This document shows positions 1,182-4,070 of a stretch of 64,000 nucleotides of DNA, in pieces. The first letter of the stretch is position 1, and the number at the start of each line of letters is the position of its first letter. This stretch comes from a candidate division WOR-3 bacterium (GTDB taxonomy: Bacteria; Hydrothermota; Tepidihabitantia; Tepidihabitantales; Tepidihabitantaceae), in contig JBDRTY010000001.1 of the NCBI GenBank assembly GCA_039801085.1, positions 236,354-300,353 on the forward strand, in the 5' to 3' direction. The notes below the pieces were generated by a model. That model saw nothing but the letters and a program-made list of their open reading frames with translations, was not told where the DNA came from and made no database searches. Both the position numbers and the translations under genes were made by a program.

Positions 1182-1215
1182 GGGTCTATTTTAAATGATT
1201 CAATTCAGAATGCAA
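1182..1215 (-). promoter_or_regulatory. sigma70-like leaderless promoter of purF
   Basis: TTGCAT-16nt-TAAAAT-6nt-GTG; no Shine-Dalgarno sequence. Confidence 0.6.
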
Positions 1216-1221
1216 ATTTAG

Positions 1222-2472
1222 TTAATCACGCAGTCTGATGTCAAGGTACGGGATTTTCAACCGTTTTGCCATCCCGGGAGAAACGGTTAATGCCATGCCC
1301 GAACCGATTACCTCACTGCCCATGCGTCTTTTTAATAAATCGACTGCCCGATAAAGTCGTTCCATTTTTTCCAAGCGGAGCGGATCGTCAAAGAGTGTAA
1401 TTTGACTGTTACGGGTAGAGACCAGTCGAGTCAGAATGACGCCGGTTTGCCGGTAAACCTTCCCGGGTTGATAGATCGCATCAAACCCCTGTTGAATAAA
1501 TGGAGCTAATAGAAGCGGATACGCTGTTGGTGCGGACAGCTTCAATTCCACTGCGCTTTCCTGAAATTCCTGGGTGCGGAGAAACAGAATCAGACGCTGA
1601 GGTGCCAGCTGATAGCGCCGGGCTTTGAAGCAGGCGGCTTCAAGATTGGCGCTGAGCCTGCTGAAGATCGCAAACCGGCTGGTGGTCGGTGGGAATGTCG
1701 TTGCCTTGCTGATTGACTGGTAGTTGTTCTTGGGTTCGGGATTTACCGGATATACCGGTCGGCCGTTTAGTTCCTGCCAGATTTCGTAGCAGGGTTTAGG
1801 GAGGTGTTTATGGATAAACATTTCGGACCGGCGGGCGAGGTCCAGTGCAGTTCTGATGCCTAGTTTATTACACCAGGCAGCGGTACTGGTTCCGATTCCC
1901 CAGACCGCATCCACGGGCAATTTTTCCAGATACAGGTGAATCTGTCGTCCCGGGATTACTGTCAGGCCCCCGGGTTTTCTGTGCTGAGAGGCGATCTTAG
2001 CGAGAACTTTAGTGAGGCTGATGCCGATGGAAACCGAGATGCCCAGTTCTGTCCGGATTGTTTCCTGAATCCGGAAGCCCAGTTCCTCATAGGAGCAGTG
2101 ATAGGCCCGGCGCAGGCCGGTAATGTCCACAAACGCTTCATCAATTGAGTATTCTTCGACCGCTGGAGAAAATCGGCGGAGAATATCCATCATCCGGATC
2201 GAAAACAGACTGTATTTTTCATAATCGGAGTTAAGAACAATTACCGCTGGATAAAGGTGTTTCACATCCCGGATCCGCATGCCCCGTTTGATACCAAGCA
2301 CCTTGGCTTCATAACTGGCAGCAGTAACAATTCCCCGCTCTCTGCCGACGATCAGCGGTTTACCGGCAAGGTGGGGATTGGTTGCCTGCTCACAGGCAGC
2401 AAAGAAGGCGTCGGCATCTACATGCAGAATCGCATTTTGCCAGTCAAAGACCAGGAGTGGCTGGGTGCTCAT
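1222..2472 (-). CDS. Y-family error-prone DNA polymerase (DinB/UmuC-like)
   Basis: ILHVDADAFFA and YSIDEAFVD catalytic motifs, IMS C-terminal little-finger region. Start moved to the ATG at 2472 (ATGA overlap with the upstream stop); the ORF-track extension to 2607 lies inside lexA. Confidence 0.93.
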   Translation of the reverse strand: MSTQPLLVFDWQNAILHVDADAFFAACEQATNPHLAGKPLIVGRERGIVTAASYEAKVLGIKRGMRIRDVKHLYPAVIVLNSDYEKYSLFSIRMMDILRRFSPAVEEYSIDEAFVDITGLRRAYHCSYEELGFRIQETIRTELGISVSIGISLTKVLAKIASQHRKPGGLTVIPGRQIHLYLEKLPVDAVWGIGTSTAAWCNKLGIRTALDLARRSEMFIHKHLPKPCYEIWQELNGRPVYPVNPEPKNNYQSISKATTFPPTTSRFAIFSRLSANLEAACFKARRYQLAPQRLILFLRTQEFQESAVELKLSAPTAYPLLLAPFIQQGFDAIYQPGKVYRQTGVILTRLVSTRNSQITLFDDPLRLEKMERLYRAVDLLKRRMGSEVIGSGMALTVSPGMAKRLKIPYLDIRLRD

Positions 2473-3053
2473 CGGTATTTCCGGATTACGGCGGTAACCA
2501 CCCCACCGATTCGGAGTTCTGCTCTGGGCTTCAAAGGCGGGTAGTTCGGATTTGCGGGGACGAGGATAATCTGTCCTCCCTGTTTTCTTAAGTACTTGAT
2601 CGTCCATTCACCATCAACCTCAGCAATCACGATATCGCCATTCTTGGGGGTGATTGAGCGGTCGATCAGAACCATGTCTCCCGGGAGAATGCCGGCTTCC
2701 CGCATTGAATTGCCGGTGACCTTCAAGAGGAAGGTAGCGGCTGAGTTGCGTATCAGCCATTCATCAAGTGAAATTTTGTCCAGAAGTTCCTCCTCGGCAG
2801 GGGAGGGAAAGCCGGCTTCAACGGTTCCGAGCAGTTTCAGGGGTGAAAGCAGTTTCTGAGGGATAAGCCTACCTTTTTCATCCTGAGTGATGATCCCCTG
2901 TGCCTTCAGTTTCTTCACCAGCCGGAAAACCGCATTTTTGGAACGCCAGCCAAAGAGCTGCGCAATTTCAGTGTAAGACGGCATCCGGCACCGCTGCCGG
3001 TAGAACTGCCGGAGCTGTTCAATTTTATTGTTCAAGTCAGCACTTCGCCTCAT
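2469..3053 (-). CDS. lexA: LexA-family repressor with UmuD-like S24 peptidase domain
   Basis: N-terminal winged HTH (MPSYTEIAQLFGWRSKNAVFRLVKKL), Ala-Gly cleavage site in EAGFPSPA, catalytic Ser (GNSM) and Lys (WTIKYL). Confidence 0.88.
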   Translation of the reverse strand: MRRSADLNNKIEQLRQFYRQRCRMPSYTEIAQLFGWRSKNAVFRLVKKLKAQGIITQDEKGRLIPQKLLSPLKLLGTVEAGFPSPAEEELLDKISLDEWLIRNSAATFLLKVTGNSMREAGILPGDMVLIDRSITPKNGDIVIAEVDGEWTIKYLRKQGGQIILVPANPNYPPLKPRAELRIGGVVTAVIRKYR

Positions 3054-3088
3054 GAATTAATTATAGTGAACGATTGTTCACTTGTCAA
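3054..3088 (-). promoter_or_regulatory. Consensus sigma70 promoter of the lexA-polymerase cassette (leaderless)
   Basis: TTGACA (3088-3083)-17nt-TATAAT (3065-3060)-6nt-ATG (3053). Confidence 0.9.
3065..3082. promoter_or_regulatory. LexA operator (SOS box) AGTGAAC-GATT-GTTCACT
   Basis: Perfect inverted repeat with 7-bp arms and a GAAC-N4-GTTC core, filling the promoter spacer. Confidence 0.85.
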
Positions 3089-3095
3089 GCAATCT

Positions 3096-4016: not shown

Positions 4017-4070
4017 CTCCGGGTTGGTGCTTGTGATTAGGCGGGCAGGGCAGTGAAACCAGTTTCTGTC

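Follow-up and report, generated by a model that had tools for sequence, protein, structure and literature searches.

A lexA-polY operon of a candidate division WOR-3 bacterium as a probable self-repressed SOS module

Overview

A stretch of 64,000 nucleotides from contig JBDRTY010000001.1 (assembly GCA_039801085.1), hereafter the window, was analysed; its source is a candidate division WOR-3 metagenome-assembled genome (MAG) of 1.91 Mb and 96.8% completeness. On its minus strand the window carries a two-gene operon, lexA-polY, encoding a LexA-type repressor of 194 residues (P0001, 3053..2469) and a Y-family DNA polymerase of 416 residues (P0002, 2472..1222). Operons of this kind are widespread and have been recognised before, and the present one is likely to be an ordinary self-repressed SOS module, triggered by RecA, that joins a LexA to a stand-alone translesion polymerase probably making use of the sliding clamp and of RecA. 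A first-pass annotation of the same DNA had proposed a mutagenesis cassette in umuDC order, in which a single LexA/UmuD hybrid might serve both as the repressor and as the activating subunit of a Pol V-like polymerase.

In the proposed cycle, a strong consensus promoter would drive a leaderless lexA mRNA, and a LexA dimer bound to GTGAAC-N4-GTTCAC in the promoter spacer would silence the operon. Upon DNA damage, RecA filaments would trigger self-cleavage of LexA at Ala80-Gly81 by means of Ser116 and Lys153, repression would cease, and the operon would yield LexA together with the polymerase that is translationally coupled to it. The polymerase would then carry out lesion bypass, probably on the sliding clamp beside RecA and without a UmuD' subunit, and freshly made LexA would close the loop by restoring repression.

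The lexA product is a full-length LexA with an intact cleavage site

The lexA product consists of a winged helix-turn-helix (HTH) DNA-binding domain (about residues 1-66), a linker and a self-cleaving S24 domain. It matched the NCBIfam lexA model TIGR00498 over its full length (residues 13-193; score 124.0, cut-off 110.95), and Peptidase_S24 was found by Pfam (1e-29), the match to LexA_DNA_bind being weak and under the cut-off (17.8 vs 23.7). In a phmmer alignment, residues 12-191 paired with residues 13-197 of E. coli LexA, the winged HTH included. The AlphaFold2 (AF2) model of the protein, with a predicted local distance difference test (pLDDT) score of 79, shows helices at residues 2-21, 27-34 and 39-51, a hairpin at 55-65, a flexible linker and a beta-rich domain. 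The top Foldseek matches to this model were the full-length LexA structures 3JSO and 3K2Z (E. coli and Thermotoga), and the LexA DNA-binding domain 1LEA was matched with a template modelling (TM) score of 0.67, whereas the C-terminal domain alone fitted the UmuD' and LexA C-domains equally well. The N-terminal region is of the 80-residue LexA type, unlike the short arm of UmuD, which has no DNA-binding domain in a protein of about 140 residues in total.

The cleavage region holds the motif EAGFPSPAEE within ...LLGTVEAGFPSPAEEELLDK... The bond predicted to be cut, Ala80-Gly81 in EA/GFPSPAEEEL (2811..2816, minus strand), aligns with A84-G85 of LexA and with C24-G25 of UmuD, and its cleavage would release a C-terminal fragment of 114 residues, compared with the 115 residues of UmuD'. 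Ser116, the predicted catalytic serine of the S24 Ser-Lys dyad (in GNSM; codon 2706..2708, minus strand), aligns with Ser119 of LexA, and Lys153, the general base of the dyad (codon 2595..2597, minus strand), with Lys156. Both residues were invariant in an alignment of 55 homologues of P0001 (alignment A1), as were A80, G81, P83, P85, A86, E87 and E88. A recA gene is present in the genome, its product being 63% identical to E. coli RecA, and cleavage is expected to depend on it.

The description of the first gene in the first-pass annotation, a LexA-type HTH fused to an S24 peptidase with the EAGFPSPAEE context, is thus borne out by the TIGR00498 match, by the AF2 and Foldseek comparisons and by the intact site and dyad. 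When the whole genome was counted, it held one S24 peptidase, which is P0001 and the only LexA, and one Y-family (IMS) polymerase. As there is exactly one S24 peptidase in this 96.8%-complete genome, the claim that no separate umuD exists also stands. A search for YolD over the whole 1.91-Mb genome found none.

A predicted operator within a consensus promoter

Only 42 nucleotides separate lexA from the upstream gene, which encodes a radical S-adenosylmethionine (SAM) protein, and they contain the whole promoter. A sigma-70 promoter matching the consensus at 12/12 positions spans 3088..3060 on the minus strand, with the -35 hexamer TTGACA at 3083..3088, a 17-nucleotide spacer and the -10 hexamer TATAAT at 3060..3065. 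The palindrome GTGAAC-GATT-GTTCAC (3066..3081) takes up this spacer and was read directly from the sequence as a predicted LexA operator of the GAAC-N4-GTTC type. The design is a conserved one: about 50 orthologous lexA promoters, from at least 7 phyla, likewise have a GAAC-N4-GTTC palindrome placed between their TTGACA and -10 elements. A palindrome in the spacer of the gene's own consensus promoter is the layout expected of an autoregulated operon, and as the operator lies inside that promoter, cleavage of LexA should derepress the operon. This part of the first-pass proposal should therefore hold.

Because the -10 hexamer ends 6 nucleotides before the lexA ATG and no Shine-Dalgarno sequence was seen before lexA, either in the window gene or at the orthologous loci, the lexA mRNA is probably leaderless or nearly so. 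Across the lexA promoters of the clade, the distance from the -10 element to the start codon is 6-10 nucleotides (window 3054-3059), and leaderless lexA mRNAs may be common to all members of the clade.

The genome contains 56 perfect TTGACA-N16-18-TATAAT promoters, compared with fewer than 1 expected by chance, so the perfect lexA promoter cannot be taken as a rarity and the operator, rather than the promoter, is the informative part. Among these 56 promoters (e.g. C1:372309, C1:376326, C3:21842 and C2:546706) there are three identical copies of TTGACAGAATTCAAATTCTGCTTATAAT and one near-copy, which may belong to repeated operons of the rRNA or tRNA kind or to a repeated element.

The predicted regulon is a single operon

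A position-specific scoring matrix (PSSM) was built from the operators of the roughly 50 lexA promoters of the clade and scanned over the whole genome. The operator of lexA-polY itself was the top site, with 27.1 bits; the runner-up, with 18.7 bits, was intragenic, within an open reading frame (ORF) of 360 residues. The scan gave no LexA operator upstream of recA or uvrB in this genome, and the ORFs downstream of the other top intergenic candidates, judged from raw translations without a family search, were unlike classical SOS genes. Copies of GAAC-N4-GTTC number 44 in the genome, against 28 expected, and nearly all of them are intragenic. A wider regulon was rejected, since the scan yielded no credible second site and recA and uvrB were negative, and the LexA regulon of this organism appears, from its predicted sites, to be the lexA-polY operon alone. 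A canonical SOS regulon as defined in PMC8565304 includes recA and uvr genes, and the sites predicted here do not extend to them. The analysis hence predicts for this WOR-3 lineage both an SOS operator, GAAC-N4-GTTC, and a minimal SOS regulon of one operon.

A different palindrome, GTGAAAC-CA-GTTTC, was noticed at window positions 4053-4068, just upstream of a TTGACC-16-TAGAAT promoter that precedes uvrB. It has AGTGAA in common with the LexA operator, shows symmetric changes in both half-sites and was left unscored by the LexA PSSM.

The LexA belongs to an old cross-phylum lineage

A large clade of LexAs is marked by the motif AGFPSPAEEEL. A protein search with P0001 gave 6,839 matches, and the homologues of the clade, 49-72% identical, came from a few WOR-3 genera, Patescibacteria, Nitrospinota, Nitrospirota, Kiritimatiellae, Lentisphaerae, Verrucomicrobia, Syntrophales and Geobacter. 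On the LexA and UmuD models, members of the clade reached 125-132 and 113-127, respectively, compared with 166-290 and 79-99 for canonical LexAs (E. coli, WOR-3) and with 83-96 and 163-172 for UmuDs. By these profile scores the clade lies midway between LexA and UmuD. P0001 itself exceeded the cut-off of the UmuD model NF007621 (127.2 vs 110, residues 79-191), and its S24 domain has GFPSPA and the strand that follows in common with UmuD, so the UmuD-like cleavage region reported in the first-pass annotation is real; passing both cut-offs, LexA and UmuD, is a property of the whole clade and not a peculiarity of the window gene.

When a tree of S24 domains was built, three groups were obtained: UmuD (91/99), canonical LexA (90/90) and the AGFPSPAEEEL clade. 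The UmuD group included the proteins of E. coli, plasmids, Synechocystis, Chlorohelix, Arthrobacter and WOR-3, and it left the window protein outside with the same 91/99 support, in a clade of its own. The deeper order is less sharp, as all three possible pairings survived approximately unbiased (AU) tests, p being 0.48 for the AGFPSPAEEEL clade as sister to UmuD and 0.56 as sister to canonical LexA. The window S24 domain shares 42.8% identity with UmuDs and 41.5% with canonical LexAs.

These data also bear on a recent chimera, in which the peptidase domain of a UmuD would have recombined onto a LexA DNA-binding domain, in analogy to the origin proposed for UmuDAb. Such an event could account for the passing of both profile cut-offs and for the resemblance to the UmuD motif, which is strongest at residues 74-113. 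However, the excess of UmuD likeness is mild, takes the form of a gradient and shows no sharp breakpoint along P0001; the trait is old and clade-wide, the domain sits in its own deep clade with homologues from many phyla and outside the UmuD clade, and the AU tests leave that clade free to be sister to canonical LexA as well as to UmuD. A recent chimera is thus very improbable and was rejected. By sequence comparison, P0001 is a member of an old LexA lineage, neither a chimera nor a UmuD. The term hybrid fits at the level of motif and profile, but not as a one-off protein, since the same features mark an old cross-phylum LexA clade, with a peptidase domain midway between LexA and UmuD, which is defined here.

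The polymerase is neither UmuC nor an E. coli-type DinB

The TGA of lexA and the ATG of polY overlap as ATGA (2469..2472, minus strand), which confirms the translational coupling that had been noted. A longer polymerase ORF starting at 2607 was rejected, because the orthologues begin at the ATGA overlap, and the start was set at 2472; the same zero-gap junction is found at the orthologous loci L033-L037, L041 and L053. The product has the IMS, IMS_HHH and IMS_C domains in Pfam, and its catalytic carboxylates D19, D21, D111 and E112 are invariant among polY orthologues, so that a catalytically intact enzyme is predicted. The AF2 model (mean pLDDT 86) shows palm, fingers, thumb and little finger, and the closest sequence matches in the Protein Data Bank were Pol IV and Dpo4. 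All the same, P0002 stayed under the cut-offs of the Pol IV models of NCBIfam (NF002677 and related; scores/cut-offs 230/381, 225/371 and 212/256), and far under that of UmuC (NF002955, 172.6 vs 431).

A tree of 53 Y-family polymerases resolved three clades. The first held UmuC with all UmuD-linked enzymes (100/100) and excluded the window enzyme; the second held DinB/Dpo4 with the enzymes linked to canonical WOR-3 LexAs (100/99); and the third held all the enzymes linked to AGFPSPAEEEL LexAs, those of Geobacter and the window included (83/93). In path length the window polymerase is nearer to the DinB/Dpo4 clade than to UmuC. It clusters with the Geobacter loci L078 and L083 (47-49% identity to Geobacter) and with orthologues from Patescibacteria, Nitrospirota and the PVC (Planctomycetes, Verrucomicrobia and Chlamydiae) group. 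On sequence grounds, the third clade corresponds to the 'GeoPolY-like' group within the PolY-core of Timinskas and Venclovas 2019 (PMC6511836), and polY is classified as neither UmuC nor an E. coli-type DinB. Membership of UmuC was rejected by the tree, the profile scores and the missing tail described below, and membership of DinB/Pol IV by scores under the profile cut-offs and by the separate clade. Failure to group with UmuC amounts to one half of the outcome that would refute the first-pass proposal.

The part of the polymerase that follows the little finger retains UmuC-like features. The pentapeptide QITLF (residues 357-361; 1390..1404, minus strand), of the type that binds the beta clamp, aligns with the QLNLF region of UmuC in hhalign, and Q357, L360 and F361 are almost invariant among the orthologues. 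Next to it, residues of about 364-390 (1303..1383, minus strand) form a helix resembling the RecA N terminus (RecA-NT-like), which corresponds to the N-terminal half of DUF4113 and is modelled by AF2 as a helix at 364-384; a motif of this kind in Y-family polymerases was described in PMC6511836. The hhalign comparison of the C-terminal extension of polY with UmuC C termini (probability 97%, E 7e-11, 48 columns) indicates homology to UmuC in both the clamp motif and the RecA-NT-like helix, and it ends before the UmuC tail W-x-M-K-R...SPRYTT. No DUF4113 match was given by Pfam in P0002, and in polY orthologues the match was weak and limited to positions 5-25, compared with positions 2-51 and 82.5 bits in a WOR-3 UmuC used as control. 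With a clamp-binding motif and a RecA-NT-like helix both present, the polymerase probably works on the clamp beside RecA.

In place of the UmuC tail there is a clade-specific tail (residues 397-416, ...AKRLKIPYLDIRLRD; 1225..1284, minus strand), which has a conserved pattern and gave no alignment to that of UmuC. The pattern [LIM]-x-[LIMV]-P-x-[LIMVFW] was found in the final 14 residues of 67 of the 79 polY orthologues. The tail is similar to the hexapeptide clamp motifs of the Hda and DinB type and, more loosely, to the strand of LexA just before the cleavage site. AF2 keeps it disordered, and intramolecular docking was rejected for that reason.

Pairing of the two clades and a possible second role for LexA

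An AGFPSPAEEEL-type lexA lies no more than 2.5 kb upstream of polY in 57 of 80 orthologues, and a further 12 of the 80 have the operator only. In Syntrophales, lexA and polY are unlinked and the polY gene has its own operator of 26-27.5 bits. The LexA clade thus nearly always occurs together with a single clade of polymerases, in which the clamp and RecA motifs are UmuC-like and the tail is peculiar to the clade, and the lexA-polY pairing is, by sequence, ancient and nearly universal. As the unlinked polY copies carry LexA operators, a regulatory link suffices to account for the pairing. At locus L190, on a 385-kb contig (DATKWK010000017.1) labelled Candidatus Bathyarchaeia archaeon, a further lexA-polY cassette has an operator of 28.5 bits, and its presence there could reflect misbinning or a transfer from bacteria to archaea.

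The alternative closest to the first-pass proposal gives LexA a dual role, in which its self-cleaved 114-residue C-terminal dimer would bind the polymerase, perhaps through the polymerase tail, and form with RecA a Pol V-like complex. The near-constant co-occurrence of the two clades and the ATGA coupling of the genes would suit it, but co-occurrence is fully explained by regulation, given the operators on unlinked polY copies; as the two clades nearly always occur together, an attempt to separate them in order to test this idea failed. The fragment would be of UmuD' size, and its domain is over the curated UmuD cut-off (127 vs 110) and shares GFPSPA and the next strand with UmuD. Against this, the domain is outside the UmuD clade and about equally distant from canonical LexAs and UmuDs (41.5 vs 42.8% identity), and the fragments of E. 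coli LexA are quickly degraded. This genome has neither UmuD nor YolD, and most genomes with an AGFPSPAEEEL LexA also have no short UmuD, which speaks in favour of the dual role. The polymerase offers a RecA-NT-like helix, as in UmuC, and a conserved, disordered tail with no assigned partner; nonetheless, it falls outside the UmuC clade (100/100) and does not have the C-terminal tail that is the main UmuD'-binding site of UmuC (PMC6511836). The dual role is consequently considered unlikely. Slightly less likely still is its most elaborate form, in which the dimer of LexA C-terminal domains (CTD) would be retained and docked on the polymerase tail, a single RecA-triggered cut would both open the operon and assemble a LexA-CTD/PolY/RecA mutasome, and the clade would represent a living intermediate between LexA and UmuD. 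If it were true that the cleaved LexA fragment serves the polymerase, the textbook view of LexA as a repressor only would change.

An ordinary SOS module, made of a LexA and a polymerase that needs no UmuD', remains the preferred reading, and three points weigh against it. A single-operon regulon is unusual for a LexA, and degenerate sites could escape the PSSM scan. The S24 domain is, judging by its sequence, unusually UmuD-like for a LexA, and the conserved polymerase tail, disordered in the model, likewise leaves room for an additional protein-protein role. The pair is in any case a good system for studying the origin of UmuD from a repressor and the accessory subunits of translesion polymerases outside Proteobacteria.

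The cassette behaves as a portable unit at a conserved junction

The lexA-polY cassette, of 1.87 kb, is placed exactly between purF and the radical-SAM gene (window 1182-3095). In a genome of the same family that has no LexA (G046), purF and the radical-SAM gene are adjacent, about 50 nucleotides apart (L127, G046:C4, 5239-5291), and this locus is a clean empty site for the cassette, which reveals an insertion polymorphism. Within the same family, a canonical lexA-dinB pair is found instead in sister genera, and genera g1 and g2 have the pair of the AGFPSPAEEEL type; in g2, the cassette and the radical-SAM gene are on different contigs. Local groups agree between the LexA tree and the polymerase tree (window/L035, L036/L037, L005/L006, PVC and Patescibacteria), and therefore the lexA-polY pair moves and is replaced as a unit. 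It behaves as portable, being present or absent at the conserved purF/radical-SAM junction and replacing the canonical lexA-dinB pair in two genera.

Such mobility raises the question of a regulator belonging to a mobile-element cassette, which would not respond to RecA or would not be a true SOS repressor. Insertion relative to G046, a different location in genus g2 and a regulon apparently limited to its own operon are what such a regulator would show. Yet no integrase, transposase, repeat boundary or mobility gene was found flanking the cassette, its flanks being purF and the radical-SAM gene; its GC content is that of the neighbouring genes, with no foreign base composition seen; the cleavage site and the Ser-Lys dyad are invariant; and P0001 is the only LexA of the genome. 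A mobile-element regulator is thus a very remote explanation.

Relation to known systems

The nearest described relatives are the lexA-polY operons of Geobacter. The LexAs of Geobacter MAGs belong to the same clade, are 49-52% identical to the window protein and carry AGFPSPAEEEL, and in the lexA-(imuB-C)-polY operons of Geobacter sulfurreducens lexA comes first and is autoregulated, as is predicted at the window locus. According to Jara et al. 2003, as summarised in PMC6511836, the Geobacter lexA-...-polY operon is induced by damage and transcribed as a unit, and in the same summary its LexA is stated not to bind the recA promoter; the window genome is alike in having no LexA site at recA. 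There are also differences. The polymerase tail of the window enzyme is shortened relative to that of Geobacter, and the GAAC-N4-GTTC of the clade promoters analysed here is unlike the published Geobacter motif, GGTT-N10-AACC (PMC8565304). Between the Geobacter lexA and polY an ImuB-C gene has been described (PMC6511836), and the Geobacter MAG loci have a gene of 474 residues there, whereas the window pair is directly ATGA-coupled; in the window no gene lies between or after lexA and polY, the rest of the genome not having been searched for ImuB-C. By eye, and without a family search, the 474-residue gene (L078 884-2317, L083 968-2410, L086 4561-6000) appeared to combine a DnaQ-type exonuclease with a GIY-YIG domain (Cho/UvrC-like).

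The likeness to E. coli umuDC (Pol V) comprises the order of an S24 protein followed by a Y-family polymerase, the overlap of the stop codon with the next start, the GFPSPA context of the cleavage site, the clamp motif and the RecA-NT-like helix. Unlike UmuD, the window S24 protein has an 80-residue LexA DNA-binding domain and falls outside the UmuD clade (91/99); unlike UmuC, the polymerase falls outside the UmuC clade (100/100), scores 173 against a cut-off of 431 and is without the W-x-M-K-R...SPRYTT tail. The assignment as a umuDC pair could not be upheld. True umuD-umuC pairs do occur in other WOR-3 genomes (L011, L013, L014, L024 and L008); they show the motif SAGFPSPADDYIDKK, and their polymerases group with UmuC and have a complete DUF4113 tail. 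Both types of system therefore exist within the phylum. At L008 and L014 the UmuD-like ORF has long N-terminal extensions, which may result from starts called too far upstream or may represent additional domains.

Acinetobacter UmuDAb resembles the window protein in being a self-cleaving S24 repressor with a UmuD-like domain that controls genes of error-prone polymerases in the absence of another LexA (PMC11332147). However, UmuDAb clusters with the UmuDs of Moraxellaceae, and its N-terminal domain is not recognised as an HTH by sequence searches; it requires the co-repressor DdrR and binds TTGA-N4-GTWAC-N4-TCAA (PMC11332147, PMC8565304). The window protein, compared with UmuDAb by description only, is recognisable as a LexA from end to end, and its predicted operator is of the GAAC-N4-GTTC type. 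In core palindrome and spacing this operator is the same as the Bacillus-type SOS box, GAAC-N4-GTTC, here placed in the promoter spacer. The LexA clade is a different one, the window C-terminal domain being 34% identical to a B. subtilis LexA reference sequence. The flanks of the clade operator are GT/AC or TA/TA, unlike those of the Bacillus-type box (CGAAC...GTTCG), and its carriers are WOR-3 and other diderm or candidate phyla instead of Gram-positive bacteria.

Within WOR-3 itself, lexA is followed by a Y-family polymerase at 26 of the 30 loci examined. The same order is therefore shared by the canonical lexA-dinB operons, which are those of most WOR-3 genomes. Their LexAs are 33-40% identical to P0001 and have cleavage sites of the AAGxPxLA type, and their polymerases belong to the DinB/Dpo4 clade.

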